A stretch of DNA of 60,058 nt, taken from assembly GCA_903894975.1 (NCBI GenBank), contig CAITSE010000074.1, positions 1 to 60,058 on the forward strand. Reading direction: 5' to 3'. A program made the translations under genes and the position numbers. Each line of letters starts with the position of its first letter. Position 1 is the first letter of the stretch. Origin of the DNA: an uncultured Lentisphaerota bacterium. GTDB lineage: Bacteria; Verrucomicrobiota; Lentisphaeria; Oligosphaerales; CAITYL01. The notes beneath the pieces were generated by a model that did not search any database, was not told the DNA's origin, and saw nothing but the letters and a program-made list of their open reading frames with translations. Shown in pieces: positions 786-49,390 of the stretch.

Positions 786-1448
786 TCACGCGTTGTGGCC
801 AAGGACGTACAGGGCGAAGCTGGCGGACCAGTTGGGGAAAAGCATGCTCTCCTGGACGCGGCCGCCGGCAAGGGTGCGGAAAAAGCCGCGGCGGTGGATG
901 ACCAGGTTGCGGCGGCCGCAGAACTCCTCGAAATCGCACACGGTGAGGTGATGGATGTTCGGGGTGTCGAACCACTGGTGCGGAATAATCGGATCCACCG
1001 GCATGCGGCCGAGGAAGAGCAGGCGCAGGCGGATGTGCCACTGGGCGAAATTGGGAAAACAGACCACAGCTTTTTTCCCCACCCGCAGCATTTCGTTCAA
1101 AACAAAATCGGGTTTGTGGACTTCGGGCAGGGTAAGGTTAAGGATGACGTAATCGAAAGACTGGTCCTCGAAATCGCGCAACCCTTCGTCCAGATTGCCC
1201 TGGAAGACGGAGAGTCCCTTTTCGATGCAGTCCATGATCCGGTTGGGATCGTGCTCGACGCCGTAGCCGAGGGCGCCTTTGTGTTTTTGGAGGAGTTTGA
1301 GCAGGGTGCCGTCGCCGCAGCCCAGGTCCAGGACGCGGACGCCCGGATCGACGAGTTCCACAATGGTGCGGAAATCGTTGCGGTTCAGGGCAGGGTCCGG
1401 AAGGACGGCCGGCGCGGAGGGGGCGGAATCCGGAGGAGTTGCGTTCAT
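786..1448 (-). CDS. metW: methionine biosynthesis protein MetW (SAM-MTase fold)
   Basis: RVLDLGCGDG motif and full-length resemblance to MetW (..NRNDFRTIVELV.., ..HIRLRLLFLGRMP..). ATGA overlap with the metX stop (1445-1448). Confidence 0.85.
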   Translation of the reverse strand: MNATPPDSAPSAPAVLPDPALNRNDFRTIVELVDPGVRVLDLGCGDGTLLKLLQKHKGALGYGVEHDPNRIMDCIEKGLSVFQGNLDEGLRDFEDQSFDYVILNLTLPEVHKPDFVLNEMLRVGKKAVVCFPNFAQWHIRLRLLFLGRMPVDPIIPHQWFDTPNIHHLTVCDFEEFCGRRNLVIHRRGFFRTLAGGRVQESMLFPNWSASFALYVLGHNA

Positions 1449-2686
1449 AGGACCGGCACCTCTCCGCCGGAGAGGGGGGGCGTCTCGTTGGCGCGATCGC
1501 GCCGATCGGCGACATGCCGCCGGGCATAGCGCAGGAAAGGGCGCAACGCCTTGGTCAATTCCTCGGTTTCCAGGAGAAACGCGTCGTGCCCGTAATCCGA
1601 TTGGATGACGAGGAAGGTCACGTCCGCGCCGTTGCTGCGGAGGGCGTTGGCGATTTCCTTCATGTCGTTGGGCGGAAAGAGCCAGTCACTGGAGAAGCCG
1701 ACGAGCAGGGTTTTGGCCTTGAGCCGCTTCAAGCTGGCGCGGAGCGAGGGGAACCCGGCGCCAAGGTCGAAGTAGTCCATGGCCTTGGTGATATAAAGAT
1801 AGGTATTGGCGTCAAAGCGCTGGATGAACTTCTTGCCCTGGTGGTGCAGGTAGCTTTCGACCTGGAACTCGGTCTCGAAGTTGTAGGCGTAGGTGTTGCG
1901 ATGGCGCAGGGCGCGACCGAACTTGCGGTGCATCGCCTTTTCGCTGAGGTAGGTGATGTGGCCGATCATGCGGGCAATGGCCAGGCCGGAATCGGGCGAA
2001 GGGCCGTTGTAATAGTCGCCGCAGTTCCAGTTCGGGTCGGCAAAAATGGCCTGACGTCCTACCTCGTTGAAGGCAATGCCCTGGGCCGACATGCGGTGGG
2101 TGCAGGCAACGGGGATGATGGTTTCGACCATGTCCGAATAGCTTACGGCCCATTCCAGGGCCTGCATGCCGCCCATGGAACCGCCGGACACCGCCAACAG
2201 GCGGCGGATGCCGAGGTGGTCGACCAGGGCCTTCTGCACCGCCACCATGTCCTGGATAGTGATCATGGGGAATTCAGTGCCCCACGGCCGGCCGGTGGCG
2301 GGGTTGGGGGACATGGCGCCGGTGGTGCCCTTGCAGCCGCCGAGGATGTTGGAGCAGATGACGAAATATTCGTTGGTGTCAAAGGCCTTTCCGGGGCCGA
2401 TGGCCACGTCCCACCAGCCCGGCTCCTTATCCTCGGGCGTCAGCCGGCCGGCGGCGTGCGCGTCGCCGGAAAGGGCATGGCAGACCAGGATGGCGTTGTC
2501 CTTTTCCGGGCTGAGCGTACCGTAGGTCTCGTACTGGACAGTCACCGGCCCGAACTCGGCGCCGCTGGCCAGCTTCAGCGTAGCCGGAGGCGCGAACAGC
2601 GTGACGTGCTGAGGCACGACCAGGCCCGCGGAACCGGCCGCGGACGCCGGCTTGTCTTCAGGAGGATGAGCGGAATGCGGAGTCAT
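1445..2686 (-). CDS. metX: homoserine O-acetyltransferase
   Basis: 413 aa alpha/beta hydrolase with MetX-typical blocks (NAILVCHALSGDAH, GGSMGGMQALEW, SDWLFPP, YGHDAFL). It is followed by metW as in canonical metXW operons. Confidence 0.9.
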   Translation of the reverse strand: MTPHSAHPPEDKPASAAGSAGLVVPQHVTLFAPPATLKLASGAEFGPVTVQYETYGTLSPEKDNAILVCHALSGDAHAAGRLTPEDKEPGWWDVAIGPGKAFDTNEYFVICSNILGGCKGTTGAMSPNPATGRPWGTEFPMITIQDMVAVQKALVDHLGIRRLLAVSGGSMGGMQALEWAVSYSDMVETIIPVACTHRMSAQGIAFNEVGRQAIFADPNWNCGDYYNGPSPDSGLAIARMIGHITYLSEKAMHRKFGRALRHRNTYAYNFETEFQVESYLHHQGKKFIQRFDANTYLYITKAMDYFDLGAGFPSLRASLKRLKAKTLLVGFSSDWLFPPNDMKEIANALRSNGADVTFLVIQSDYGHDAFLLETEELTKALRPFLRYARRHVADRRDRANETPPLSGGEVPVL

Positions 2687-2720
2687 AGCGCGAAACTATA
2701 CAGCCTTCCGCCGGACGCGC

Positions 2721-2740
2721 CTAGCCCGGCCAAGCCGGAA
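2721..2740. repeat. 20-nt motif CTAGCCCGGCCAAGCCGGAA, copy 1 (identical copy at 16099-16118)
   Basis: 20/20 identity with 16099-16118. Both copies sit in the 5' leader region of a minus-strand housekeeping gene (metX and infC). Confidence 0.6.
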
Positions 2741-2754
2741 CCGGGTTTGTGGTG

Positions 2755-3100
2755 CTAGCCTGATCTATTCATGAACACGGTGAAAACCCTTTTTGATCCC
2801 CAATCCGTTTTGCTCGCTAAATACGCGAAATTTCGCGAAAAAAGCCGAAATCGCAGTTCCCTCGGAAGCCCCGGCGGGCATGCGCGTCAACTTAAGGATT
2901 TGAGTCTCTTTGTACCGAGGCACAGCATCTTTGGAGTGCGGTGGCTTGACACCGCTTTCCCCGGCGGCGGAGCCGCCATCCCACGCATAGTTCAACTCCC
3001 ATGCCCTGACAGAAGCGGAGACGTCAGACAGGAGGCCGGTTCCACCGGCGGGAAAAAGCGGCGTCCAGCCGCCGACACTCCAAAGCGGCGCGGACGCCGC
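2755..3100. repeat. Composite structured repeat, copy 1: module A (2755-2890, starts with the six-frame-stop motif) plus module B foldback (2891-3100, stem 2929-2977 / 3034-3085)
   Basis: About 85% identical by eye to 13278-13675, with module A inverted there. Module B arms CTTTGGAGTGCGGTGGCTTGACACCGCTTTCCCCGGCGGCGG / CCACCGGCGGGAAAAAGCGGCGTCCAGCCGCCGACACTCCAAAG are complementary. Module A contains the palindrome CGCGAAATTTCGCG. Confidence 0.8.
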
Positions 3101-3115
3101 GGTCAAGGCAGAGAA

Positions 3116-4123
3116 TCAGAGCCCTTGCTTTCGTTTTACTTCCAATACCGCAATCTTGGTGGAATGATTGAATGGGCTGGGGTCGGTAATGGAAGTTCCG
3201 GCCTGGGTTTCAGGATACCCGATGAAATCCTCGGGAACGGGAATGAGTTCTTTGATTTTCAGATACCCGTCTCCGCATAAGACGTCGAGCGTTTTCGCAT
3301 AGTCGTTGCCGCTGACAAACAAAGCATTGTTCACGACGACCAAATAGCCGCCGTCGTTGATGAGAGGGCGGACTTTGTTGATGAGATTCGCGCTTTGGTT
3401 TTCCTGATCTACGCGGCCTTTTGCCGTGGTTGAAAAAAACGGGGGGTCGAGGATGACGCAGTCGAATAACGCGTTTGCCTGTTTCATCCGGCTTACCTGC
3501 TCAAAGAAATCCGCGGCGATCAAATGCCACTTGCGACGGGGGAAACCGTTCAGGGTGTATGATGTTTGGGCGAGCGCGAGGAATTCGCGGTTTAAATCAA
3601 TCTGCACCACCCCGGCGGCGCCCCCACTGAGCGCGGCGACGCCGAAGCTGCCGGTGTAGGCGAAGGTGTTCAGAACGGATTTGTCTTTCATGTTTTCAAT
3701 GAGCCACTTGCGCAGGTTGCGCGTGTCGAGATAAAGGCTTGAGTCGCGGTTCAGCATCAGGTCAATGGCGTACCAGACCCCATGTTCTTTGATTTTCCGG
3801 TCGAGTTCGGTTCCGAATAAAAACACCCCCCGTTTTTCTTCCGGCGTGGCGCCATAGCGGGTTTTTACCAGCCCCGCGCGCAGCCAGGGCAGCACGGATC
3901 GCACATACGCGGCCGCCTCTTGAACCCGGGTCGTTTGGGGGGCCGGATCCGCGGCATAATGGTGAATGACAAGTGTGCGCCCGTAAATATCGAGCACGAA
4001 ATCGGGGTCGCCTTCGGTGAAGCCGTTGAAGAGGCGAAAGGCGGCCACATGGTGCGGGTCTATCCAGGCCTGGCGGGATCTAATCGCGTTTTCGAGCCGG
4101 GAGGTCACGGGGGATAAAATCAT
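3116..4123 (-). CDS. class I SAM-dependent methyltransferase, RlmI/RlmK-like (rRNA m5C-type)
   Basis: 335 aa. N-terminal PUA-like/EEHEE region, then an MTase core with NTFAYTGSFGVAA (motif I-like) and ILDPPFF (motif IV). Confidence 0.75.
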   Translation of the reverse strand: MILSPVTSRLENAIRSRQAWIDPHHVAAFRLFNGFTEGDPDFVLDIYGRTLVIHHYAADPAPQTTRVQEAAAYVRSVLPWLRAGLVKTRYGATPEEKRGVFLFGTELDRKIKEHGVWYAIDLMLNRDSSLYLDTRNLRKWLIENMKDKSVLNTFAYTGSFGVAALSGGAAGVVQIDLNREFLALAQTSYTLNGFPRRKWHLIAADFFEQVSRMKQANALFDCVILDPPFFSTTAKGRVDQENQSANLINKVRPLINDGGYLVVVNNALFVSGNDYAKTLDVLCGDGYLKIKELIPVPEDFIGYPETQAGTSITDPSPFNHSTKIAVLEVKRKQGL

Positions 4124-4836: not shown

Positions 4837-4863
4837 CCGGCCGTAACACACGCATTCATTGAA

Positions 4864-4938
4864 TTGAACAGAAGGCCGCAAAGGGCACAAAGCTGTTTAG
4901 GTTGAAGCGGGTTGAGATCTTTGCGAGCTTCTGTTCAA
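4864..4938. repeat. Word-arm foldback hairpin with conserved base TTGAACAGAAG...CTTCTGTTCAA (GCAAAG words)
   Basis: TTGAACAGAAGGCCGCAAAG (4864-4883) pairs with CTTTGCGAGCTTCTGTTCAA (4919-4938). Same base sequence as 12096-12171, with half copies at 23546-23574, 13680-13697 and 24655-24681. Confidence 0.75.
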
Positions 4939-4958
4939 AATCAAAAGAGGGTTTAATC

Positions 4959-12061: not shown

Positions 12062-12230
12062 CTACCCGGGATTATTCACACCCGGTTCGCATTCATTGAA
12101 CAGAAGACCGCAAAGATTAGGCAAGTGTCTGGATTGGAAAATCCTTCGTGCTCTTTGCGAGCTTCGGTTAAAAATGGGTTTGACAAAATCGGGGATCCAG
12201 ATGAATCTGTCCATGAATAGCTCAGACGAA
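12062..12230. repeat. Decayed miniature element: foldback 12096-12171 flanked by degenerate copies of the six-frame-stop motif
   Basis: TTGAACAGAAGACCGCAAAG (12096-12115) pairs with CTTTGCGAGCTTCGGTTAA (12153-12171). Flanks GGGATTATTCACAC (about 12068-12081) and CCATGAATAGCTCAG (12211-12225) resemble the motif ends seen at 48293-48435. Confidence 0.5.
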
Positions 12231-12650: not shown

Positions 12651-12893
12651 AGCCCCGGAGGGGCGACATTGGGGGTGGGGGCTGGCGCGATTGCCAGTTA
12701 TGCCGCCCCCTCCGGGGGCTGAAAATCTTTATCTACTCCATGACCGGGGGCTCACGCCCCCGGCTACTTACTACCGCCCCGGCGGGCATGCGCGTAAAGT
12801 CAAGTACCACCGGCTAAGCCGGTGGCTTGTTGGACGCTTCGCTTGGGCCGCTCAAAGCGGCTATTCGTTGAGGTTTTGCCGTCTAAAGACGGC
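12651..12893. repeat. Array of five short GC-rich hairpins downstream of the tnpA remnant
   Basis: Hairpins: 12651-12720 (AGCCCCGGAGGGGCG/CGCCCCCTCCGGGGGCT), 12744-12763 (CCGGGGGC-tcac-GCCCCCGG), 12807-12825 (CCACCGG-CTAAG-CCGGTGG), 12847-12861 (GCCGC-TCAAA-GCGGC) and 12878-12893 (GCCGTC-TAAA-GACGGC). A module-A fragment CCCCGGCGGGCATGCGCGTAAA lies at 12777-12798. Confidence 0.55.
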
Positions 12894-12897
12894 GGTG

Positions 12898-13158
12898 TTA
12901 GTTACAGCCAGGCAACGCGAGTTGCTGATCCAATTGAGACTCCGAGTGCTTCGGGGGGATGCTCAGCAGCATATGCACATGGTCGATGCATAGGTTGCCT
13001 TCTTCGATCTTGCACTCCTTGTGGGATGCCAACTCGTGGAAAACCGAGCCGAGGGACTTGCGCACCTGCCCGTACAGCGTCTTCCGGCGATACTTGGGGA
13101 TGAACACGACGTGGCACTTGCATTCCCACCGGGTGTGCGCTAGACTTTTTTCTCTCAT
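12898..13158 (-). mobile_element. tnpA: IS200/IS605-family TnpA (Y1/HUH transposase), 3'-truncated remnant
   Basis: MREKSLAHTRWECKCHVVFIPKYRRKTLYGQVRKSLGSVFHELASHKECKIEEGNLCIDHVHMLLSIPPKHS matches the IS200 TnpA N-terminal half, including the HxH motif (HVHML). Similarity is lost after ..SIPPKHSESQ, so about half the protein, including the catalytic Tyr region, is missing. A CCCCGG-CTAA-GCCGGGG hairpin lies at 13248-13264 on the 5' side. Confidence 0.8.
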
Positions 13159-13277
13159 GGGTACTTCCTTCCGTTCTGAGCTTTGCTACGGCCCAAGCGA
13201 AGGAGTACCCTATTCTATTCCCGCAAATGTCGAACTTTGAGAGTCTCCCCGGCTAAGCCGGGGGGCTACCTGTTTTA

Positions 13278-13675
13278 CTTAAGGATTTGTGTTCCCCTAT
13301 ACCGATGCGGAGCATCCTTGGAGTGCCTGCGGCTTGACGCAGCTTTCCCCGGCGGCGGAGCCGCCTCTCCCACGCATGATCCAAACTCCCGCACCCAGAC
13401 AGAAGCGGAGAAATCAGACAAAGGCCGGTTCCACCGGCGGGAAAAAGCGGCGTCGAGCCGCCGGCACTCCAAAGCGGCGAGGACGCCGCAGTAAATACCC
13501 ATAACAATTTAAAGTATAATGCATAATGGTTCTTACGTTTACGCGCATGCCCGCCGGGGCTTCCGAGGAGAATGCGAGTTCGGCTTTATGTTCGCGAAAT
13601 TTCGCGTATTTAGCGGGCAAACCGGATTGGGGATCAAAAAGGATCTCCGTCTTGTTCATGAATAGATCAGGTTAG
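13278..13675. repeat. Composite structured repeat, copy 2: module B foldback (13278-13489, stem 13316-13365 / 13423-13473), AT-rich spacer, inverted module A (13531-13675) ending in the six-frame-stop motif
   Basis: Alignment by eye to 2755-3100. Module B has the same orientation and module A is the reverse complement. The motif GTTCATGAATAGATCAGGTTAG is at 13654-13675. Confidence 0.8.
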
Positions 13676-13808
13676 CGCCCTTCTGTTCAACGAATTCGAG
13701 GAGGTCGATTTTTCGCGAGCGGCATTTCCTTTGCCGCGGTCGGAATCATATTGTGGAATGAACGGCGGCCGCCCTCCTCCCGCCCGCCCTTCCACAAGGG
13801 AGTTTTTC

Positions 13809-14549
13809 ATGGCGAAAATCAAGACGTACAACCGCATCCTGCTTAAACTCAGCGGCGAAACCCTGGCCGGCAAGGACGGCTCCATCGACCCCAAGTCCGT
13901 GGCCACGGCCGCCGCCCAGATCGGGGCGGTGGTGAAAAGCGGCGTCCAGGTCGCCCTGGTCATCGGCGGCGGCAATATCTTCCGTGGCCTGCCGGCCAGC
14001 CGCAAGGGCGGCATCCAGCGCGCCACGGCCGACGCCATCGGCATGCTCGCCACGATCATGAACGCCCTGGCCATGCGCGACGGTCTGGAAGCCGCCGGTG
14101 TGCCTGCCGAAGTACTGGCCGCCATCCCCCTGGCCGGCGTCGCCGAAGGCTTTGACCGGCGCACCGCCATCCGTCACCTGGAAGCGGGCCGCGTCGTGCT
14201 CCTGGCCGGCGGCACCGGGCATCCGTACTTCACCACCGACACCACCGCGGCCTTGCGCGCCTGTGAAATCGGCGCCGACGCCGTACTCAAAGCGACCAAG
14301 GTCGACGGCGTCTACACTGCCGATCCGAAAAAAGACAAGAGCGCCCGCCGTTACCGCCAGCTCTCCTATGACGACGCCCTGGGTGGACGCCTGGAAGTCA
14401 TGGACGCCGCCGCGTTCTCCCTCTGCCGCGACAACAGCGTCCGCATCATCGTCTTCGATTTCTTCCAGAAGGACGCCTTGAAAAAGGCCGCCTGCGGCGA
14501 CCTCGCCATCGGCACCGTGATCGGCGATCTGCCCACCCAATTGGCCTGA
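13809..14549 (+). CDS. pyrH: UMP kinase
   Basis: MAKIKTYNRILLKLSGETLAG.., VIGGGNIFRG, TTDTTAALRA, KATKVDGVYTADP. These are canonical PyrH blocks. Confidence 0.9.
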   Translation: MAKIKTYNRILLKLSGETLAGKDGSIDPKSVATAAAQIGAVVKSGVQVALVIGGGNIFRGLPASRKGGIQRATADAIGMLATIMNALAMRDGLEAAGVPAEVLAAIPLAGVAEGFDRRTAIRHLEAGRVVLLAGGTGHPYFTTDTTAALRACEIGADAVLKATKVDGVYTADPKKDKSARRYRQLSYDDALGGRLEVMDAAAFSLCRDNSVRIIVFDFFQKDALKKAACGDLAIGTVIGDLPTQLA

Positions 14550-14644
14550 TCGTTCCGTCTTCCGCGGTTCCGTTCGGAACCGGAATCACAGACTCTCCGA
14601 TCAAGAAATCAGCGTCCCCGGGAGGGCGGTTCCGCCGCCGGGAA

Positions 14645-14687
14645 ACAAAAAAGGACGCGACCGCCGGAGCGGTTGCGTCCTTTTTTT
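14645..14687. terminator. Bidirectional Rho-independent terminator between pyrH (+) and rplT (-)
   Basis: A6-GGACGCGACC-gccggagc-GGTTGCGTCC-T7. There is an A-tract on one side and a T-tract on the other. Confidence 0.7.
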
Positions 14688-21401: not shown

Positions 21402-22280
21402 TCAGCCGAACAACCGGCGGAGCTTGCCGGCGGTGTCCCGGGCCAGGTCCAGGTCGGGCAGGCGCAGGTCGGGCAGACGCGAGAACGGGATCATCTCGGC
21501 GGTGACCGGCCCGCGGTAGCGGATCTTGCGGAGGGCGCGGCGGACCGCCGGCCAGTCGGCGGCGCCGGACTCCAGGTCGTCGCCGAACCCGTGCAGGGTG
21601 CCGCCGCAGTCGTCGCGCCGGAAGTTCTTGACGTGCACGGCGAAAATCCGCCGGTCCAGCATCTCGATCCAATGTTCGGGATAGCCGTTGACCAAACAGT
21701 TGCCGGCGTCGAAATACACACCCACCAGCTCGGCGGGAAACTGGTCCACAAAAGCACGCATGGCCACCGGATCAGCCAGGAACCAGTTCCAGACATTCTC
21801 CACCGCCAGCCGGACGCCCAAACGCCGTGCGGCCGGCAGACAGGCCTTTAGGCCGGCCGTGGCCCGTTCCCACGCCTGGGCATAGGACACCACCGGCTGG
21901 GACGGATCCCATGGCACGGCCACCGCCCCGGGCAGCACCAGCACGGTGTCGATCCCCAACCAGGACGCCACCTGCAGGTAGTTCTCGGTAAATTCCACGG
22001 CCTGACGCCGGACCGCCGCCCGCGGATGGGTGAACGGCGCCGCCCAGTAACTGCCGGTGGCCATGGTGCCCAAACGCAGGCCGGTTTTATCCGCGCATGC
22101 GCGCAGGCGCCGACACTCTTCCTGAGTCACCCCCGGGGCCAAACATCCCGCGCCAAAGACCGGCTCCAGGCCGTCATAACCCATGGCGCGGGCCTCGGCC
22201 ATGGCCTGCGGCAATGGTTTTTCGCTGGCAAAACCGCCAAGCGTGATGTAATTGATTTGAAGAAGATTGCCCATGATCAT
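21402..22280 (-). CDS. sugar phosphate isomerase/epimerase family protein (xylose-isomerase-like TIM barrel)
   Basis: MIMGNLLQINYITLGGF.. through ..RLAVENVWNWF.., ..VYFDAGN.. and ..HVKNF.. The ATG at 22280 overlaps the upstream stop (ATGA). The upstream 123 codons of ORF 21402..22649 overlap the Gfo/Idh/MocA gene and are not protein-like. Confidence 0.8.
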   Translation of the reverse strand: MIMGNLLQINYITLGGFASEKPLPQAMAEARAMGYDGLEPVFGAGCLAPGVTQEECRRLRACADKTGLRLGTMATGSYWAAPFTHPRAAVRRQAVEFTENYLQVASWLGIDTVLVLPGAVAVPWDPSQPVVSYAQAWERATAGLKACLPAARRLGVRLAVENVWNWFLADPVAMRAFVDQFPAELVGVYFDAGNCLVNGYPEHWIEMLDRRIFAVHVKNFRRDDCGGTLHGFGDDLESGAADWPAVRRALRKIRYRGPVTAEMIPFSRLPDLRLPDLDLARDTAGKLRRLFG

Positions 22281-23446
22281 GACCTCGGGTTGCCGCCGGC
22301 GGTGGGAAGGGGTGGAATGTCCTGCGGCTGGCCGCCGTTCCGCAGGGATTCCGTAGCCTGACAGCCGACCGCCACCGCCATGCGCGCCGCTTCCGGCGTG
22401 GCCGTGGTGACCGTGATCCGGCCGCTGGCAAAATCCAGAAATTCCTTCACAATCACCGGATCCGCGCCGCCATGCTCCCCGCCGACGGTTTCCTCGCCCC
22501 GGTGAACTTGGTCGGGGAACAACCGGTAGCTGTCGGTGCGCCGGTTCCAGACGGCAATCGGCGAGTCCGGGCTGTCCCCGAGATTCTCGATCCGCCCCTC
22601 CGTCCCGATCACCGTATAGTTCCGGCAGGCGTCCGGGGTGAAATGACACTGGAGATAGGCGCCGAGGATACCGCGCTCCATCTGGAGGATGACCACGTTC
22701 TGATCCTCGATGTCGATCACCGGGTTGAACCCGGACTGGGCCGGGGGCGGCCAGTGGGCGGCGTTAAACTTCGCCTGGGCCGGCTCCTCCGGATTGCGCC
22801 GGGGCAGTCCCCCGTACACCGCCAGGTTGCCGAACGCGCTGACCCGCGTGGTATAGGCGCCGCTGAGCCAGTGGATGACGTCCAGATCGTGCGCCCCCTT
22901 CTGCAAGAGCAGCCCGGTGGTGTTCTTCCGCTCGGCATGCCAGTCGCGGAAATAGGCGTCGCCGCCGTAACTGATGAAATGACGGCACCAGACAGACTTC
23001 ACTTCCCCGACCGTCCCGGCGTCAATCAGCACCTTCATCTTCCGGATAATGCCCATGTAGCGCATGTTGTGGCCGACGAAAAGCCGGCCGCCCCCCGCGG
23101 CCGCGGCCGCCAGGACGCGGTCGCAACCGGCCACGGTGATGGCCATCGGCTTCTCCAGGTACACGGTCTTCCCCGCGGCCAAAGCCGCCACCGCCTGTTC
23201 CTCGTGCAGAAAATCCGGGGTGCAGATAAAGATGGCGTCCAGTGACTGCGCCAGCAATTCCCGCCAGTCGGCGGTAGTGAACAGCTCCGCGCCATAGAGC
23301 TCGCGGCAGGCCGCCAGCGTCTCCGGATTGGTGTCGCAGCAGGCCGTGACGCGGCTGCCCTTACCGGGAAGATGCGCATGCGCGGCGACCCGGCCGCGGC
23401 CGCCGGCGCCGATGACACCGATCCGGAGTTCTTGTTCCTTGAGCAT
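22277..23446 (-). CDS. Gfo/Idh/MocA family oxidoreductase
   Basis: LRIGVIGAGGRGR Rossmann motif and EKPMA motif. ATG at 23446 (the track start at 23491 is TTG). Confidence 0.85.
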   Translation of the reverse strand: MLKEQELRIGVIGAGGRGRVAAHAHLPGKGSRVTACCDTNPETLAACRELYGAELFTTADWRELLAQSLDAIFICTPDFLHEEQAVAALAAGKTVYLEKPMAITVAGCDRVLAAAAAGGGRLFVGHNMRYMGIIRKMKVLIDAGTVGEVKSVWCRHFISYGGDAYFRDWHAERKNTTGLLLQKGAHDLDVIHWLSGAYTTRVSAFGNLAVYGGLPRRNPEEPAQAKFNAAHWPPPAQSGFNPVIDIEDQNVVILQMERGILGAYLQCHFTPDACRNYTVIGTEGRIENLGDSPDSPIAVWNRRTDSYRLFPDQVHRGEETVGGEHGGADPVIVKEFLDFASGRITVTTATPEAARMAVAVGCQATESLRNGGQPQDIPPLPTAGGNPRS

Positions 23447-23484
23447 GAATGTTTCTCTTATATGCTTAATTTTACCAAGCGTTA

Positions 23485-23513
23485 TTGACAATAACTAACA
23501 TATACGTTATTTT
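23485..23513 (+). promoter_or_regulatory. Putative sigma70-type promoter for the Gfo/Idh/MocA gene at 23588, with overlapping palindrome TTATTGaCAATAA (23482-23494)
   Basis: TTGACA (23485-23490), a 17-nt spacer, then TATTTT (23508-23513). The 6-1-6 palindrome spans the -35 box. Confidence 0.4.
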
Positions 23514-23587
23514 TATCTCCGTCAAGAAAAGACCGAAACCGTTTTTTGAACAGAAGCCCGCAAAGAACACAAAGGGATCGATCTCTT

Positions 23588-24625
23588 ATGACGCTCCAAA
23601 TCGGCATCATCGGCCTCGGCTTCATGGGCCGCTGCCATTTCGAAACCTGGGCGAAAGTTCGCGGCGCGCGCCTCGCCGCCGTCTGCGACATCGACCCGCG
23701 CAAGCGCGCCGGCGACTGGTCCGGCACCGCCGGCAATCTAGGCGGCAGCGCCGCCCGGACCGATCTTTCCGGCCTCCGGATCTATGCCCGGGCGGAGGAG
23801 ATGTTCGCGGATCCGGACCTGGATGTGGTGGACATCACCCTGCCCACATACCTGCACGCCGAGTATGCCGTGGCAGCCCTGCGCGCCGGCAAACATGTAA
23901 TCTGCGAGAAACCGATGGCCCGCACCTCGACCGAGGCGCGCCGGATGCAGGCGGCGGCGAAAGCGGCCAATCGCCAGCTCTGCGTGGCCCAGTGCATCCG
24001 CTTTTGGCCGGCCTATGCTGTCGCGGCGGAACAGGTCCGGACCGGCAAGCTCGGCCTCGTCGTCTCCGCTACCTTCCGTCGGGTGTCGCCGAAGCCGACT
24101 TGGAGCTGGAAAAACTGGCTGATGGACGAAACGAAAAGCGGGGGCTGCGTCCTCGACCTGCACATCCACGACGCCGATTTCGTCCTTTCCCTGTTCGGGC
24201 CGCCCCAGGCGGTGTCGAGCCAAGGCAGCGCCGCCGGCCCGGGCGGCGTCGACCATGTCATCACCTCCTACCGTTATGCCGATGGCAAACTGGTGACGGC
24301 CGAAGGCGCCTGGGAGCACACCGCGGGCTTCCCCTTCAGCATGACCTTCGTCCTCGCCGGCGAAAAGGCGAGCCTGACCCTGGCGGAAGACGGCAAGCTG
24401 CGGCGACATGACGCCAAGGGCACGAACGTCCTCCCGGTCCCGGAGGGCGACGGGTACCTGCACGAGCTGCAACATTTCGCCGGCTGCCTCGCCCGGAACC
24501 GGCCGTCCTCCGTGGTGCCGCCAGGCGCCGCGGCGGCCAGCGTGGCGCTCATCGCCGCCGAAATGACCTCCCTGAAACGCGGCCGCGAAGTCCGGATGAA
24601 ACTGTCGGATCCCAGGGGGTACTAG
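23588..24625 (+). CDS. Gfo/Idh/MocA family oxidoreductase
   Basis: MTLQIGIIGLGFMGRCH.. and CEKPMA motif. The TAG stop (24623-24625) lies inside the six-frame-stop motif. Confidence 0.85.
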   Translation: MTLQIGIIGLGFMGRCHFETWAKVRGARLAAVCDIDPRKRAGDWSGTAGNLGGSAARTDLSGLRIYARAEEMFADPDLDVVDITLPTYLHAEYAVAALRAGKHVICEKPMARTSTEARRMQAAAKAANRQLCVAQCIRFWPAYAVAAEQVRTGKLGLVVSATFRRVSPKPTWSWKNWLMDETKSGGCVLDLHIHDADFVLSLFGPPQAVSSQGSAAGPGGVDHVITSYRYADGKLVTAEGAWEHTAGFPFSMTFVLAGEKASLTLAEDGKLRRHDAKGTNVLPVPEGDGYLHELQHFAGCLARNRPSSVVPPGAAAASVALIAAEMTSLKRGREVRMKLSDPRGY

Positions 24626-24681
24626 CCTGAACTATTCATGAACCACTTCGTGAGCTTTGTGACCTTCTGTTCAACGAATTC
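24622..24681. repeat. Six-frame-stop motif (24622-24643) plus half foldback arm (24655-24681)
   Basis: CTAGCCTGAACTATTCATGAAC followed by CTTTGTGACCTTCTGTTCAACGAATTC. The last 18 nt are identical to 13680-13697. Confidence 0.8.
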
Positions 24682-25799
24682 TGCCGCGGATGTGCGATGC
24701 AATCGGCGTAGAGCGCATTGATTTTTCGGATCTCTTCAGCGCCATCGGCAAAGGATTTCACATACGCCAAACCAGCCGCCACAGCACCATCTCGCAGCCG
24801 TGGGTTAGTAACCACATCCAAGAGGACGCCTGCCAAGCCGTCAACATCGTTCAAACACACTTTCCCGGTCACGGCCCCATTGTCGATCGCTTCCTGGTAC
24901 TGAGGAAGATCCCCGTGAATCAAGAAAGAGCCGCAAGCCAAAGCTTCATAAAGCGTTTGGGGAAACCCTTCAGAACTGGGCACGACGACCGTTGCCACGG
25001 CTAAATTGTAGCAATCTGCCATTCCTGCCGGTGGAAGCTTGGGCAAAAACCTCACCCGGTCGGCAATCTGAAGTTCCTGCGCCAACGTTTTCAAGCGCTT
25101 AAGATACGCAGGATCTGCGGCAAACTCGCTGGCCAACAGGTACAACGGCAACTCCGGTCGTTCGCGCCGGACCTTGGCAAACGCCATCATAATCACATGC
25201 TTATTGTAGAGGGGTTGGGCCGCGCGCGGGTCAAACACCACCAGGGCCGCCTCCGGAAGACGCAGTTCCTCCCGCAACGTTGACACCTGCCGACCGGCAT
25301 GGAAAATAGCGGAATTCACCCCCCAGGAGATCCGCACAATCCGTCGAACATCAGGAACCAATCGCCGGACGGCCTGATCGAGAAATGCCGTTTTTGAAGT
25401 CACGGCGTCAGCGCGAGACAACAATTGCTTCGTCAGGTATTTATACAGGAAACGGCACCCCTGCTCAGGCAGAACGTCGCCTCCCATTACCGTAACCACC
25501 AAGGGCTTCTTCTGCCGCACCAACAAAAACGGCATCAATCCCTGAAAGGCATAATGCACATGGATCAGATCAGGTTGGAATGATCGAAGGGCGTTATGCA
25601 GGACAAATGGCATGCACAGCGTCCGCATAATCACCGACGAACGCGCCCAAGACTTGGGAACATACAACGGCACCTCCGCGGGAAGCTCTCCGGCATGCGG
25701 GGAAACCCAGCCCACGGAATGCCCGCCCGCCAAACCCGCCAACCCGCGAGTTGCTCCCAAGGGACTGCGCGCATTGGCAACTACCAAGATCTTCGCCAT
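24636..25799 (-). CDS. glycosyltransferase family 4
   Basis: 387 aa GT-B fold. The C-terminal domain has ..VVVPSSEGFPQTLYEALACGSFLIHGDLP.. (EX7E-like). The last ~14 codons (NSLNRRSQSSRSGS*) are read from the repeat. Confidence 0.8.
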   Translation of the reverse strand: MAKILVVANARSPLGATRGLAGLAGGHSVGWVSPHAGELPAEVPLYVPKSWARSSVIMRTLCMPFVLHNALRSFQPDLIHVHYAFQGLMPFLLVRQKKPLVVTVMGGDVLPEQGCRFLYKYLTKQLLSRADAVTSKTAFLDQAVRRLVPDVRRIVRISWGVNSAIFHAGRQVSTLREELRLPEAALVVFDPRAAQPLYNKHVIMMAFAKVRRERPELPLYLLASEFAADPAYLKRLKTLAQELQIADRVRFLPKLPPAGMADCYNLAVATVVVPSSEGFPQTLYEALACGSFLIHGDLPQYQEAIDNGAVTGKVCLNDVDGLAGVLLDVVTNPRLRDGAVAAGLAYVKSFADGAEEIRKINALYADCIAHPRQNSLNRRSQSSRSGS

Positions 25800-43597: not shown

Positions 43598-43695
43598 GAT
43601 GGAATTTCCTTTCTCTTCTAGTCAGAAAAACGAAAAATTCCGCGTTTTGTTGTGTAGGAACGTGGTTATACCAATTAAAAATCAAACTGGGATAC

Positions 43696-43810
43696 TATTC
43701 GCGTTCATTCGCGTTTATTAGCGGTTCAAGAAGAAGGAACATATTTTTACCGCATAATTATATAACATTCTCTTTTTTAACCGCTAATGAACGCTAATGG
43801 ACGCTAATGA
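43696..43810. repeat. Word-arm foldback hairpin (10-nt CGCTAATGRA words)
   Basis: TATTCGCGTTCATTCGCGTTTATTAGCGGTT (43696-43726) pairs with AACCGCTAATGAACGCTAATGGACGCTAATGA (43779-43810), with an AT-rich 52-nt loop. A decayed module-A-like stretch of TTCGCG words follows at about 43925-43981. Confidence 0.75.
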
Positions 43811-43975
43811 ATTTTGAATTGAAAATGCGGCTTTGTGACTAGTATATGATCAATTTGATCTGTAATTGGGATTACACCACGTTTCCGCGGCGTTGTCAGG
43901 GGCCGCGACATGGAACGCTCCGATCACTTTCGCGCTTTTTCGCGTGTTTCGCGGGCAAATCGGCTCGCGCACCGA

Positions 43976-45214
43976 TCAGGCGACCGGCTTCACCAGGGCG
44001 GGGTCGAGCAGGCCGCGCTGGCGGCGGAGCTGGTCCTGCAGGCGGCGGATGTCCACTCCGGCCACCGCGCCGGCGGCGCCTTGCGCGGCCAGGGCCGCGG
44101 CAGTGCCGGCAGCCTCGCCGGTCACGGCGCACCCGGGAATGGCGCGGGTGACGTCCCAAACCGCCGCCTCCGCCGAGATGCAGCGGCCGGCGGCGAGCAG
44201 GTTCCGGTTGCGGACCCCGCAGAGCGTGCGCAACGGCAGCGCGTAAACCGGGCCGGCTTGACGCCAGTCGCCGGTGAGCCCGACGGTGTCATCGAACCAT
44301 TCATGCACCTGCGTTTCGGCAAGAGACAACGCGCCGACCAGACGGCGGGAGGCGCGGAAGCAGGCAATGGTGGTCGGGGCGAACAACTGCACTTCCTCCC
44401 CGGGATGCCGGGCGCGGATCGCGGCCAGATCGCGGCGGACCAGTTCGCGGCTGCCGAGGATCATGTCGGTCACCTGCCGGCCGTCGTCGCCGCGGAAAAA
44501 CGGGCCGGCGCCGCCTTCGCGGGTCAGGCGCGGACTGTAGGGATGGGTGCACTGCTTGAGGTGCAGCTTGCCCTCGCGGAGATAATAGTACCAGCCGCAC
44601 AACACGTTGGAATCCAAAGATTCCGTCGCCTCCCCGGCGAAATGGCAGAGATCGGCGTCGCCGGTGGCGTCGACAAAGGTCTTGCCGGCGATCGCCGTGC
44701 GCCCGCTCTTGTTCTCGACCAGGACATGGGTGAGGACGTCGTTCTCGCGGCGGACGTCGCAAACCCGGGTGTCATAGGACAGCGTGACGCCGGCGGCGGT
44801 CACCCATTTTTCCAGCGCGAAAAAATAAGACGCGGGATTGAACTCGGCCTGAAACCGTTTGTGCCGGCGCTCCGCCGGGTCGCCGCCGGGTTCCCAGCAG
44901 GCGGGAACGCGCCGGAAGTAGGCCGCCGGATCATCCTTGCCGAGCTCCTGCACGGACAGACGCAGCAGTTCCTCGCCCAGCCCGCCGATGACCTGACGGC
45001 CACGGCCGTCGCAGATGGGCAGCCAGATGATGACGTTGCCGAGCGTGGCCAGACCACCGAGCGCGCTCTCCTTGTCCAGCAGGCAGACCGTGGCGCCATT
45101 ACGCGCTGCGGCCACGGCGGCGGCAACGCCGGCGATGCCACCGCCGGCCACCACCACGTCAAACTCGCCGGTGACCGGCACCTCGCGGGCAGGTTCGTGA
45201 ATGGAAAGAGTCAT
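43976..45214 (-). CDS. FAD-dependent oxidoreductase
   Basis: FDVVVAGGGIAGVAAAVAAARNG dinucleotide-binding motif, 412 aa. The antisense ORF 43910..45232 is a shadow. Confidence 0.8.
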   Translation of the reverse strand: MTLSIHEPAREVPVTGEFDVVVAGGGIAGVAAAVAAARNGATVCLLDKESALGGLATLGNVIIWLPICDGRGRQVIGGLGEELLRLSVQELGKDDPAAYFRRVPACWEPGGDPAERRHKRFQAEFNPASYFFALEKWVTAAGVTLSYDTRVCDVRRENDVLTHVLVENKSGRTAIAGKTFVDATGDADLCHFAGEATESLDSNVLCGWYYYLREGKLHLKQCTHPYSPRLTREGGAGPFFRGDDGRQVTDMILGSRELVRRDLAAIRARHPGEEVQLFAPTTIACFRASRRLVGALSLAETQVHEWFDDTVGLTGDWRQAGPVYALPLRTLCGVRNRNLLAAGRCISAEAAVWDVTRAIPGCAVTGEAAGTAAALAAQGAAGAVAGVDIRRLQDQLRRQRGLLDPALVKPVA

Positions 45215-47229: not shown

Positions 47230-48165
47230 TTACGGCGACGGTGCGGTGCCGAGGGCGGCGCGGAGGGCGGGGAGGGTTTGGAGTACGCGCGGGCCGGGCT
47301 TGAGCAGGAGGTTGGTGTCGAAGCCGCCGAACACCCGGTTGTCGCGCACGGCCCGGAGCTGGTTCCAGCCGGTGCGTTCGCGAAAGGCCGCGGTCTGGGA
47401 CGGTGCTTTGGCGGCGTCGTTCAGGCAGAGCACAACTTCGGGATCGCGGACCAGAACCCATTCGGCGGAGACCGCGGCGTAATCGCGGTCAAAATCATCG
47501 GCAAGATTGCGGCCGCCGGCCAGGCGCACAAGTTCAGCGACAAAAGAGCTTTTCCCGGCGGTCATCAGCGGGTCCGGCCAGATTTCAATGAAGACGCCTG
47601 GCGCGCGGCCGGACGCCGGCAACGCCCGGCGGCAACGGGCGAGTTCGGCGGTGAATTCCGCCGCCATTTTCGTCGCGGCGGTTTCACAACCGATAGCGCG
47701 CCCGACTTCCAGGATGGCGGTCGGGATCTCCGTCAGGGTGCGGCAGGAAATGATTTTGCGAGTGATGCCGAGTTCTTCCACGCGCCGATCCAGGGCGGGA
47801 TCGGAAGAGTCCACCTGCAGGACCAGGTCCGGCCGCACCGCCACCAGTTTTTCCAGGGACGGCCGACAGAAGTCGCCGACGACAGGTACGCGCCCAATGA
47901 TCTCCGGAGGATACTCGCAGACCCGGCTGCGTCCCGCCAGGCGATCGCCGGCGCCGAGGGCGCAGATGATTTCAGTCAGGTTGGGCGAGAGCGAGACAAT
48001 GCGCCGGGCCGGCGCCGGCGGAACGGAGTCCGCAGCGGCGATCCGTCCACAACCGGCGGCCAGCCACACGCCGGAAAAGAGCAGAAAACGGAAGAGCAAA
48101 AGCCACGCCGCCCCCGGGGAACGCTTCCCGGGCCGACAGCGATCAGGATCAAGTCGGTTACTCAT
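47230..48165 (-). CDS. ABC-transporter periplasmic binding lipoprotein, BtuF/siderophore-binding family
   Basis: Lipobox ..VWLAAGC.., then ..RRIVSLSPNLTEIICALGAGDRLAG.., ..PDLVL.. The ATG at 48165 was verified. The longer track ORF extends into the hairpin repeat. No partner permease or ATPase in the window. Confidence 0.75.
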   Translation of the reverse strand: MSNRLDPDRCRPGKRSPGAAWLLLFRFLLFSGVWLAAGCGRIAAADSVPPAPARRIVSLSPNLTEIICALGAGDRLAGRSRVCEYPPEIIGRVPVVGDFCRPSLEKLVAVRPDLVLQVDSSDPALDRRVEELGITRKIISCRTLTEIPTAILEVGRAIGCETAATKMAAEFTAELARCRRALPASGRAPGVFIEIWPDPLMTAGKSSFVAELVRLAGGRNLADDFDRDYAAVSAEWVLVRDPEVVLCLNDAAKAPSQTAAFRERTGWNQLRAVRDNRVFGGFDTNLLLKPGPRVLQTLPALRAALGTAPSP

Positions 48166-48177
48166 TGAATACGAACG

Positions 48178-48280
48178 TCCAACATTCAACATTGAACATC
48201 CAACATCGAATCCAGAGCGACCCTGTGAATTCATGCGGGATTCAAGGTTGAAGGTTGGATGTTGAATGTTCAATATTTGG
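48178..48280. repeat. Word-arm foldback hairpin (CAACAT words)
   Basis: TCCAACATTCAACATTGAACATCCAACATCGAATCC pairs imperfectly with GGATTCAAGGTTGAAGGTTGGATGTTGAATGTTCAATATTTGG. It starts 13 nt upstream of the BtuF-like start codon. Confidence 0.75.
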
Positions 48281-48292
48281 GAATCATTCATG

Positions 48293-48435
48293 CTAACCTG
48301 AATTATTCACGAACCTGCCGGAATAGCCACAAAAGATCACAAGGGTACACAAAAAAATGCGCCATCCACCTTTGTGTTTCTTTGTGCTCTTTTGTGGCAG
48401 AAACGGTTTTCATCTCATGAATAGATCAGGCTAAG
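48293..48435. mobile_element. 143-bp MITE-like element: 22-nt terminal inverted repeats (six-frame-stop motif) around a CACAAA-word foldback
   Basis: Left end CTAACCTGAATTATTCACGAAC (48293-48314). Right end CTCATGAATAGATCAGGCTAAG (48413-48435) is its imperfect reverse complement. The internal hairpin is GCCACAAAAGATCACAAGGGTACACAAA / TTTGTGTTTCTTTGTGCTCTTTTGTGGC (48326-48398). No coding capacity. Confidence 0.6.
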
Positions 48436-49282: not shown

Positions 49283-49390
49283 GTGAATTCCCAATATATG
49301 CTGGAGATCACGACTCCCCCACACTTTTGTGAAAGGCACACGATAGGATAGCGCGGCCCGCCGGGATGCCAAGCTTTTTCGCCACCACAG

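Follow-up and report, generated by a model that had tools for sequence, protein, structure and literature searches.

Genes and repeat copies in the window

The window (the whole stretch of 60,058 nucleotides analyzed here) contains five clear copies of a dispersed 22-nt motif. At 24622-24643 (plus strand, one mismatch to the 22-mer), a single copy supplies the stop codons of two convergent genes: TAG 24623-24625, within the first four bases CTAG (24622-24625), terminates a Gfo/Idh/MocA oxidoreductase, and TGA 24636-24638, read on the minus strand within the remaining 18 bases (24626-24643), terminates a GT4. A TIM-barrel gene (AP_endonuc_2; 48431-49282 or 48431-49372, minus strand) ends with TAG 48431-48433, supplied by the duplication of another copy, at the right-hand end of the complete MITE described below. 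All three are real genes, and the three ORF ends are as given in the preliminary description.

Each copy consists of a four-base target-site duplication and an 18-bp terminal inverted repeat (TIR) of IS1380 type, as argued below. The copy at 2755-2776 (plus strand) matches the 22-mer without mismatch, comprises CTAG (2755-2758) and the TIR (2759-2776), and precedes the start of an alpha/beta hydrolase gene (1445-2686, minus strand) by 69 nt. The copy at 13654-13675 (minus strand, one mismatch) comprises the TIR (13654-13671) and a flanking CTAA (TTAG on the plus strand, 13672-13675); it is located upstream of an amino-acid kinase gene (13809-14549, plus strand) and adjoins the end of an older hairpin-type MITE (13676-13697). 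The remaining two copies face each other at 48293-48314 (plus strand, 21 of 22 positions matching) and 48413-48434 (minus strand); the latter had been described as one nucleotide longer, but spans 22 nt with three inner mismatches. Allowing up to three mismatches, the 22-mer has four matches in the window versus none expected (100 shuffles), and likewise none of the five clear copies is expected.

Counting a relic at 12209-12230 (minus strand, 18/22 match), the window holds five to six copies of the end. Of the other relics proposed earlier, the one at 3105-3121, thought to contain the stop of an RlmI-like gene (3116), has TCAG alone in common with the motif (below 16/22) and was rejected. The match at 43970-43981 spans 8 bases and, taken alone, is at chance level. 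It gains some support from an adjoining subterminal GCGGGCAAATCGG that matches the right end of a related MITE (L162), whose interior is also matched nearby at 43673-43820. The segment 43950-43985 (plus strand, GCGGGCAAATCGG...GATCAGGC) is listed as a possible, weak relic of a right end; the TGA stop of an FAD oxidoreductase (43976-43978) does lie inside it, as had been claimed.

The two facing copies delimit a complete MITE (48293-48434, plus strand, 142 bp), consisting of CTAA, a TIR (48297-48314), a hairpin with a 28-bp stem (48326-48398), a second TIR (48413-48430), and again CTAA. The two TIRs are inverted copies of CCTGAnnTATTCA(C/T)GA, and the direct duplication CTAA...CTAA borders 48297-48430. 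The element folds very stably as RNA (-53 kcal/mol, z = -7.2). It is shorter than 600 bp, has no coding capacity of its own, and its end occurs in several copies, the criteria we applied to MITEs. The other repeats are less complete. Copy 2755-2776 is followed by the subterminal part of an 'A-type' MITE left end (2777-2868, plus strand; about 88% identical to 13561-13653), whose first ~55 nt are common to two MITEs of the same metagenome (L162 and L144) and which then passes into an unrelated repeat unit. Copy 24622-24643 continues into the remainder of a truncated hairpin-type MITE (24644-24692, plus strand; an arm at 24644-24674 and a degenerate second end, about 70 bp as a whole). A decayed MITE (12062-12230) retains a left TIR-like CTACCCGGGATTATTCACACCC (12062-12083), a hairpin (12096-12172), and the right TIR at 12209-12230. 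A hairpin-type ('B') repeat (4844-4940), in which the outer half of the TIR is decayed, carries an arm TTGAACAGAAGG... that comes after the TIR in MITEs from other genomes (L018, L082), and a solo arm of this type is found just upstream of the oxidoreductase start codon (23544-23574, plus strand).

A tblastn search with two IS1380 transposases detected no IS1380 transposase gene in the window. The window thus contains non-autonomous IS1380 derivatives only: one complete MITE (48293-48434), one truncated MITE of about 70 bp (24622-24692), and decayed copies; copies 2755 and 13654 represent left ends of a different MITE type, fused in both cases to an unrelated repeat unit. A clean partner end exists for one of the five copies; the other four need secondary events such as truncation, nesting, or one-ended capture. 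Rfam families (at gathering thresholds), tRNA, and tmRNA were sought across the entire window without a match; the motif therefore does not belong to any known RNA or tRNA-linked element.

The motif as the end of IS1380-family elements

We consider it very likely that the 22-mer marks where host DNA meets an element of the IS1380 family, that is, a 4-base target-site duplication followed by a terminal inverted repeat. Bases 1-4 (YTAR: CTAG, CTAA/TTAG or TTAA) are the duplication, and bases 5-22 (CCTGAnnTATTCATGAAC; CCTGA-nn-TATTCATGAAC) are the inverted repeat of an IS1380-family transposon. Ends of this family begin with CC and are accompanied by a duplication of 4-5 bp, as also seen in annotated plasmid elements.

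The assignment is based on elements in other genomes, where the exact 22-mer bounds elements of 1.4-1.7 kb coding for IS1380-family DDE transposases as well as dozens of MITEs of 50-270 bp in many phyla. Transposase genes were called with the curated models PF13701 and NF033539 (cutoff 180 bits). Inverted pairs of the motif surround such genes at four loci (L117, L089, L173, L192; PF13701 E-values of 1e-103 to 7e-148), transposases of motif-bounded elements score 265 and 317 bits with NF033539, and at a further 15 loci a homologous transposase adjoins the motif. The 22-mer of copy 2755-2776 occurs identically at the ends of three IS1380-family elements (L173, L170, L206), where it bounds a 1590-bp element flanked by CTAG/CTAG. 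Two plasmid elements annotated in RefSeq as 'IS1380 family transposase' have ends of the same build, namely TTAG|CCCATCTTATTCACGG in Komagataeibacter (1628 bp, TTAG/TTAG) and CTAG|CCGCTCTTATTCACGG in Methylocystis.

Other loci yielded 61 paired ends. Their 4-bp flanks are identical on the same strand (CTAG/CTAG, CTAA/CTAA, TTAG/TTAG, TTAA/TTAA), with CTAG being the commonest duplication, followed by CTAA/TTAG and TTAA. At least 10 of the paired-end cases have the non-palindromic flanks CTAA/CTAA; identity of the CTAA/CTAA and TTAG/TTAG flanks therefore leaves a direct duplication as the sole explanation. Among the papers covered by our literature search, none connects IS1380 with CTAG targets.

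The motif matches more than 119 loci in genomes, and 90 exact matches were found in metagenomes versus about one by chance. Short inverted pairs with a spacing of 50-270 bp are frequent, as are copies at contig ends. Common to different genomes is only the end of about 20 nt, and the interiors vary by lineage. That the motif tips a dispersed repeat family is borne out; the suggestion of an undescribed element class is not, as the motif marks the ends of known IS1380-family insertion sequences and MITEs and bounds IS1380 transposase genes elsewhere.

An IS1380-family DDE transposase would recognize bases 5-22 as its terminal inverted repeat, and the MITEs in the window would depend for their mobilization on such an enzyme, supplied in trans from elsewhere in the genome. 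None of the window copies proved to have an empty site or to be polymorphic for presence among same-species contigs. Exact protein matches to the GT4, the amino-acid kinase, and the TIM-barrel gene led only to contigs that do not differ from the window across the copies. Past 48138, one contig (L221) no longer follows the window and contains another repeat end and a different gene; it was rejected as an empty site and represents a structural variant or an assembly break. A variant at the oxidoreductase (P0029/L223) departs at 24542 into unrelated sequence and is probably chimeric.

Association with gene ends

The preliminary description stated that genes terminate inside the motif. This holds for the oxidoreductase, the GT4, and the TIM-barrel gene, but copies 2755 and 13654 sit away from gene stops, upstream of gene starts. 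The ORFs that end in these two copies (1514-2758, plus strand; 13667-14170, minus strand) match no Pfam family and lie antisense to the real genes, with which they overlap.

Across phyla, flanking genes end in the motif far beyond chance. In a sample of 192 ends, evaluated for ORFs of at least 200 codons with other YTAR sites as control, the duplication provides the stop of such an ORF at 25% of the ends; the corresponding shares are 2.2% for all remaining YTAR sites and 3.3% if these are restricted to sites outside long ORFs, so that the ends are enriched about 8-11 fold at gene stops. Long ORFs that run into an end terminate mostly at the duplicated TAR (47 ORFs), less often at position 7 (18), and rarely at position 18 (2).

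TAG and TAA stops that follow a pyrimidine are YTAR targets, and insertion there would duplicate the stop and leave the gene intact, so that such insertions survive; the oxidoreductase and the TIM-barrel gene fit this pattern. Insertion slightly within a 3' end, as may have happened in the GT4, would allow a TGA in the repeat to close the frame within a few codons. As had been noted, the C-terminal tail of the GT4 (NSLNRRSQSSRSGS, followed by the stop; about 14 residues) is read from the adjoining repeat arm, on the minus strand of the remainder 24644-24692. As to the further proposal that the repeat replaced or created this C-terminus, replacement is plausible: homologues are at most 45% identical, their conserved part stops at ...YADCI, and their tails differ. 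Homologues of the oxidoreductase (50-59% identical) are mostly about 6 residues shorter at the C-terminus, and their tails vary as well, such that the comparison of C-termini suggested in the preliminary description finds variable tails in both families.

Stop codons in all six frames

As had been observed, every frame is closed on both strands in four of the five clear copies, and the remaining copy has stops in five of the six frames. Such 22-mers are rare, with a frequency of 0.04-0.08% in random sequence and of about 0.9% if CTAG is fixed and the TIR is shuffled; in the window, the property is found in these copies and at one other site (43776). Its origin can be traced to the parts of the end. 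The palindromic YTAR target supplies one stop per strand, the core TATTCA of the whole family (TGAATA in reverse complement) two reverse stops, and the subgroup-specific CCTGA and CATGA two forward stops. Because these parts jointly supply the six stops, the six-frame property would be a by-product.

In other genomes, six stops are present in 81 of 125 ascertained ends, for which the search pattern fixed most stop positions, and in 12 of the 61 partner ends, which were unconstrained by the pattern. The pattern leaves two positions free, which are strongly biased (A 62%, T 67%); the flanks, too, show structure. It had been proposed as a test that stop triplets should be better conserved than neighboring bases. 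This was not borne out: in partner ends, the stop positions 9, 18, and 19 are conserved at 62-70% and the non-stop positions 5, 6, and 14 at 90-98%, a contrast of low power both ways since 16 of the 22 positions belong to some stop triplet. CCTG and TATTCA are conserved at 87-98%, whereas the third base of the first TGA (position 9) reaches 62%; a CACGA variant that loses a stop occurs in 25-30% of ends, and a common G-to-A variant at position 19 turns TGA into TAA and keeps the stop. Full-length, functional-looking elements (L089, L093b, L088) have ends with four or five stops, and annotated IS1380 relatives share the end architecture but have stops in only four of six frames. Judged from these sequences, the conservation is a binding-site pattern, not a codon pattern.

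Alternative explanations

We note that an adaptive explanation would read part of these data differently: ends of the subgroup would be selected for six-frame stops within about 20 nt, a 'safe landing' device in which a target preference for stop codons combines with capped ORFs and blocked translation into and out of the element, rendering insertions harmless. The rarity of six-frame 22-mers even with CTAG and TIR composition given, the 81 of 125 ascertained ends (within the constraint of the search pattern), the stop-preserving variant at position 19, and the enrichment at gene stops are in line with this explanation, which we nevertheless regard as quite unlikely, given the 12 of 61 unconstrained partner ends, the variability at position 9 and in CACGA against the near-invariant non-stop positions, and the apparently functional elements and annotated relatives that do with fewer stops; the low power of the conservation contrast applies to either side. 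We found no evidence of a selected function for the six-frame property, and the rarity of such 22-mers leaves room for some selection for compact stops in the subgroup. A broader version, in which a pan-phylum IS1380 subgroup and its MITEs practice 'stop-codon landing', with YTAR targets preferred at TAG/TAA and a repeat honed to close frames within 20 nt, is likewise unlikely. If it were true, these elements could settle at gene 3' ends nearly free of cost in Verrucomicrobia, Lentisphaerae, Aminicenantes, Firmicutes, and other groups, and the enrichment would reflect active site choice, for example via terminating ribosomes or the DNA structure of 3' ends, and not survivorship alone.

Readings without transposition of an IS1380-type element fare worse. 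A host-encoded site, for example a REP/REPIN mobilized by a RAYT, a terminator module, or a protein-binding site, might be suggested by a truncated IS200-like Y1 transposase gene between two copies (12898-13158), by the plentiful long hairpin repeats in the window, and by the stable fold of the complete MITE. We hold this to be highly improbable: the motif shows 4-bp direct duplications and TIRs and bounds DDE and not Y1 transposase genes, the inverted repeats around the Y1 fragment (12776-12809 and 13527-13560) differ from it (GCCCCGGCGGGCATGCGCG), and the window is without Rfam families or tRNAs. One 20-nt end with unrelated interiors in many phyla fits the recognition end of a transposase and not a regulatory site of the host. 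Target duplications, DDE partners, and cross-phylum spread also led us to reject REP/RAYT, integron attC-like, and terminator readings. A reading in which an AT-rich intergenic 22-mer recurs by chance, without biological meaning, describes only the weak relics at chance level (8 nt at 43970, TCAG at 3105); for the motif as such its probability is close to nil in view of the window and metagenome matches far above expectation, the biased free positions of the search pattern, and the structured flanks.

Implications and relation to known systems

As the end of IS1380-family elements, the motif is ordinary mobile DNA with a neat side effect, and current concepts are unchanged; MITEs with stops in all frames and MITE fusions to gene 3' ends are already described. 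For annotation, the motif flags MITE insertions in PVC-type metagenomic genomes, accounts for unusual C-termini (the final ~14 residues of the GT4 being an example) and for assembly breaks at such repeats, and indicates that ORFs ending in it, as 1514-2758 and 13667-14170, may be ghosts. For transposon biology, it provides a well-supported 4-bp YTAR target for a broad IS1380 subgroup, echoing the TTAA of piggyBac, many MITE families derived from this subgroup, and a quantified association with gene stop codons.

Among known repeats, REP/REPIN sequences with their RAYT (Y1) resemble the motif in being short, abundant, hairpin-forming, and intergenic, and a Y1 fragment is present in the window. 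REPs, however, lack a target duplication, are imperfect palindromes that flank a Y1 (RAYT) gene in inverted orientation and not TIRs of DDE elements, and are lineage-specific; the 22-mer, with its target duplications, DDE partners, and occurrence in many phyla, was rejected as a member. A likeness is also found in bacterial MITEs noted for six-frame stops, namely RUP (pneumococcus, IS630-Spn1), the 155-bp Correia/NEMIS, CIR, and MITEAba12, which are non-autonomous and mostly intergenic elements with TIRs, target duplications, and hairpins. They differ in their parent transposases (IS630, ISAba12/IS5), in their targets (TA or AT-rich 9-mers versus YTAR), and in the spread of stops over 107-155 bp versus 22 nt here. 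Stops in all six frames have been remarked on earlier for other bacterial MITEs (PMC6382973, PMC2229807).

The IS1380 family itself (IS1380, ISEcp1, ISPme1; NF033539, PF13701) shares with the elements described here a single DDE transposase of ~430-480 aa, a length of 1.4-1.7 kb, imperfect inverted repeats (~15-20 bp) starting with 5'-CC, a 4-bp duplication, and the core TTATTCA. ISEcp1 and ISPme1 mobilize adjoining DNA through surrogate ends (PMC9330008), which by analogy could explain the solo ends in the window. Differences are that the window derivatives have no transposase, that the subgroup repeat CCTGAnnTATTCATGAAC carries two forward TGA stops absent from annotated relatives, that the subgroup yields many MITE families (in Verrucomicrobia-like, Lentisphaerae, Aminicenantes, and other lineages), and that its transposases are only ~27-45% identical to the named plasmid-borne members. 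The eukaryotic piggyBac inserts at TTAA with a 4-bp duplication and has repeats beginning with CCC. The target YTAR includes TTAA, and the repeat described here begins with CC; the elements differ from piggyBac in being prokaryotic, in their much smaller transposase, and in their relaxed target. IS1380 transposases serve as the prokaryotic outgroup of piggyBac (PMC10813416).

Identity of the motif

The 22-nt motif is very probably the end of an IS1380-family element and consists of a target-site duplication (bases 1-4) followed by the terminal inverted repeat (TIR, bases 5-22). The preliminary description had proposed an undescribed class of element, a view that is not borne out. A scan of one genome per species (GTDB, ~1.2e12 bases) with the pattern TARCCTGANNTATTCAYGA returned at least 119 loci; the matches listed come from Aminicenantes, Verrucomicrobia, Lentisphaerae, Chthonomonadaceae, Firmicutes, Bacteroidales, Proteobacteria and others. 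By our estimate ~280 matches are expected by chance in this number of bases. The matches are nonetheless not chance, because the two free positions of the pattern are strongly skewed (A 62%, T 67%) and, among the matches listed, many are no more than 100 nt away from a contig end and many form short inverted pairs. In two loci the inverted pairs are 1.4 and 1.7 kb apart and enclose a single long ORF, in both cases encoding an IS1380-family DDE transposase (PF13701, E ~1e-103; NF033539, 265 and 317 bits at a cutoff of 180). A homologous transposase adjoins the motif in 10 of the 119 loci listed, including these two. In metagenome contigs, YTARCCTGAWCTATTCATGAAC has exact matches at 90 loci, compared to ~1 expected by chance, and IS1380 transposases are found in 9 of them. 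The exact 22-mer of the window is located on a 1590-bp element in three loci (L170, L173 and L206), whose transposase of 442 aa matches PF13701 with an E-value of 7e-148.

The four bases outside the repeat are identical, and on the same strand, in 61 paired ends from the genome loci and in many more from the metagenome loci. CTAG/CTAG is the most common pair, CTAA/CTAA occurs at least ten times, TTAG/TTAG and TTAA/TTAA several times each. Since the non-palindromic pairs can be explained only as direct duplications, the first four bases of the motif are a target-site duplication of 4 bp with the target YTAR. The L173 protein shares 43-46% identity with the products of plasmid genes annotated as 'IS1380 family transposase', and the same end design is present in annotated elements of Komagataeibacter (TTAG followed by CCCATCTTATTCACGG, with TTAG at the far end) and Methylocystis (CTAG followed by CCGCTCTTATTCACGG). 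All properties of an IS1380-family end, or of a short transposase-less derivative (MITE), that were tested were found, mobility itself apart.

Copies in the window

Allowing up to three mismatches, the consensus CTAGCCTGATCTATTCATGAAC matches the window four times, at 2755 (+), 13654 (-), 24622 (+) and 48413 (-), and has no match in 100 dinucleotide-preserving shuffles at the same tolerance. A scan with a degenerate consensus, in which a score of 16/22 is at chance level (~1.75 expected), adds a copy scoring 21/22 at 48293 (+) and, at 12209-12230 (-), a relic scoring 18/22. All five clear copies described previously are recovered, and the observation as such largely holds. A relic suggested near 3105-3121 is not, as nothing scores 16/22 there, and another at the stop of the FAD oxidoreductase (43976) is weakly supported by adjoining MITE pieces of the L162 type: an interior at 43673-43820 and, at 43950-43985, a 13-nt subterminal match adjoining GATCAGGC, a possible relic.

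What the copies have in common with other genomes is limited to ~20 nt, and each lineage has interiors of its own. The copies at 2755 and 13654 have ~145 nt in common, the first ~55 nt of which also occur in MITEs of 243 bp and longer from the same metagenome as the window (L162, L144). Their distal part, GCCCCGGCGGGCATGCGCG, is a different unit that also flanks a truncated Y1 transposase gene. In the copy at 24622, an intact end leads into a single hairpin-repeat arm (TTGAACAGAAGG...CAAAG), after which comes a second, degenerate end. Because the same arm directly follows the TIR in the Lentisphaerae-type MITEs L018 and L082, the 'B' hairpins of the window (4864-4938, 12096-12172 and 23546-23574) are interior segments of older MITEs from this superfamily; at 12062-12230 both ends survive as well, in decayed form. 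The complete MITE at 48293-48434 consists of CTAA, CCTGAATTATTCACGAAC, a 98-nt interior (48315-48412), TCTCATGAATAGATCAGG and CTAA, and thus also shows the duplication at its outer flanks. Its interior contains a hairpin with a 28-bp stem, and as RNA the MITE has a predicted fold of -53 kcal/mol (z = -7.2).

Immediately to the left, a hairpin at 48181-48270 with 33-nt arms (82% complementary) is probably another decayed MITE. It occupies the nominal N-terminus of ORF 47230-48291, and the true start of this periplasmic-binding-protein gene is therefore probably further downstream. A metagenome scaffold (L221, ERZ18624653 scaffold_5675) is 99.8% identical to the window from 50781 to 48138 and then continues with a further repeat end (GCTTGATGAATAGATCAGG, followed by TTCG) and a different downstream gene, which indicates structural variation or, alternatively, an assembly that breaks at the MITE cluster.

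Other repeats and features

The truncated Y1 gene at 12898-13158 (-) is IS200-like (PF01797, E 1.7e-19, profile positions 2-70 of 121) and is flanked by 34-nt inverted repeats (12776-12809 and 13527-13560, 88% complementary) as well as small CCGGCTAAGCCGG hairpins. A repeat of ~235 nt, found at 2871-3106 and 13258-13495 with pieces at 13927-13949 and 14620-14645 (copies 72-94% identical), forms a long hairpin (GGAGTGCGGTGGCTTGAC...AGCCGCCGACACTCC), lies in opposite orientation, relative to the motif copy beside it, at these two sites, and could be a REPIN-like unit connected with the Y1 gene. The long ORF 52786-55443 is rich in the repeat SGNNGYTGAITVNGGSLT and contains a tandem 57-nt repeat (53498-53611, 75% identity); its repeats resemble the autotransporter-type beta-strand repeats common in Verrucomicrobia. 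A stretch of ~100 nt at 23440-23545 is markedly AT-rich for a window of 62% GC. It has the divergent gene 22277-23491 (-) on one side and the hairpin arm in front of the oxidoreductase gene on the other, and probably acts as a common promoter region.

Genes ending in the motif

The ORF ends quoted in the preliminary description are correct, and real genes account for three of them: a Gfo/Idh/MocA oxidoreductase (stop TAG 24623-24625) and a GT4 glycosyltransferase (stop TGA 24636-24638), both ending in the copy at 24622, and an AP_endonuc_2 TIM-barrel protein (stop TAG 48431-48433). The claim that genes terminate in the motif fails for the copies at 2755 and 13654, which, unlike the others, are located upstream of gene starts; the ORFs ending in them have no match in a Pfam search and overlap real genes on the opposite strand. 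The best-named homologues come from MAGs of Verrucomicrobia, Lentisphaerae and Kiritimatiellae, which suggests a PVC-group bacterium as the source. The conserved GT4 domain ends with ...YADCI, and the final ~14 codons of the gene lie in the MITE, up to the TGA in the repeat; in homologues, none more than 45% identical, the tail is short and variable. A variant of the oxidoreductase (P0029, locus L223) is identical to the window over 22694-24542, then continues in unrelated sequence, so that its tail is a different one, of 20 residues; the contig is probably chimeric.

Stops in the motif and stops of genes

As described, all six frames contain a stop in four of the five clear copies, and five frames do so in the remaining copy. 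22-mers with six-frame stops make up 0.04% of uniform random sequences, 0.08% of motif shuffles and 0.006% at window composition; in the window they are confined to these copies and one other site, 43776. Conservation was assessed on partner ends (n=61), which were found solely via pairing with an ascertained end. Conservation is highest at positions 5-8 (CCTG, 89-93%) and 12-17 (TATTCA, 87-98%). It drops to 62% at position 9, where the first TGA has its A, and to 64-70% at positions 18 and 19, and only 12 of the 61 ends keep six stops. The stop triplets are thus no better conserved than their neighbours, in a test of limited power because 16 of the 22 positions fall in some stop triplet, and it lends no support to a selected stop cassette. 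The ends of full-length elements contain 4, 5 or 6 stops. In the annotated elements of Komagataeibacter and Methylocystis the number is 4, comprising the three outward-reading frames and the duplication. The six stops are composed of one on each strand from the palindromic target, two from the family-wide core, which reads TGAATA(A/G) on the opposite strand, and two subgroup-specific forward TGAs that vary freely. With CTAG fixed and the repeat shuffled, ~0.9% of sequences yield six stops, which is unusual, though the observation is post hoc.

For 226 non-redundant element ends, drawn from the window and loci L001-L212, open frames that enter the end and span at least 200 codons stop at the duplicated TAR 47 times, at the TGA of CCTGA (positions 7-9) 18 times and at the TGA of CATGA (18-20) twice. 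The ninefold difference between the two TGAs compares with equal counts expected under random insertion near the 3' end. The duplication doubles as the stop of such an ORF in 48 of the 192 ends with enough upstream sequence (25%). The proportion falls to 2.2% when the remaining YTAR sites of these loci are taken together (odds ratio 15, p = 4e-34) and to 3.3% when only those lying outside long open frames are counted (odds ratio 10, p = 3e-23). This excess may reflect active targeting of stop codons or survivorship, either of which fits the data; that the elements have evolved landing on stop codons as a strategy seems improbable. The simplest reading is survivorship of harmless insertions. 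A TAG or TAA stop after a pyrimidine would itself be a YTAR target, and the duplication would regenerate the stop on insertion. Insertions at stops would persist because the gene is left untouched, and those inside genes or promoters would be purged. The oxidoreductase and the TIM-barrel gene fit a regenerated stop; GT4 is another kind of case, its tail continuing through the MITE until the repeat TGA.

Comparison with known systems

PiggyBac duplicates TTAA and its repeats begin with CCC. IS1380 transposases are its accepted prokaryotic outgroup (PMC10813416). Six-frame stops have already been noted for RUP, CIR and the 155-bp Correia element (PMC2229807), and for MITEAba12, together with fusion to the 3' end of a neighbouring gene (PMC6382973). 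The IS1380 members ISEcp1 and ISPme1 use surrogate ends and carry adjacent DNA along (PMC9330008), which by analogy offers a possible route to the solo ends in the window. A REP/RAYT element was rejected, as the motif lacks the defining features, and the motif element matched no family in an Rfam search. A literature search returned no paper on IS1380 with CTAG targets. We note that the clear YTAR target of this IS1380 subgroup, the breadth of its MITE progeny and the measured link of these ends to stop codons are modestly new.
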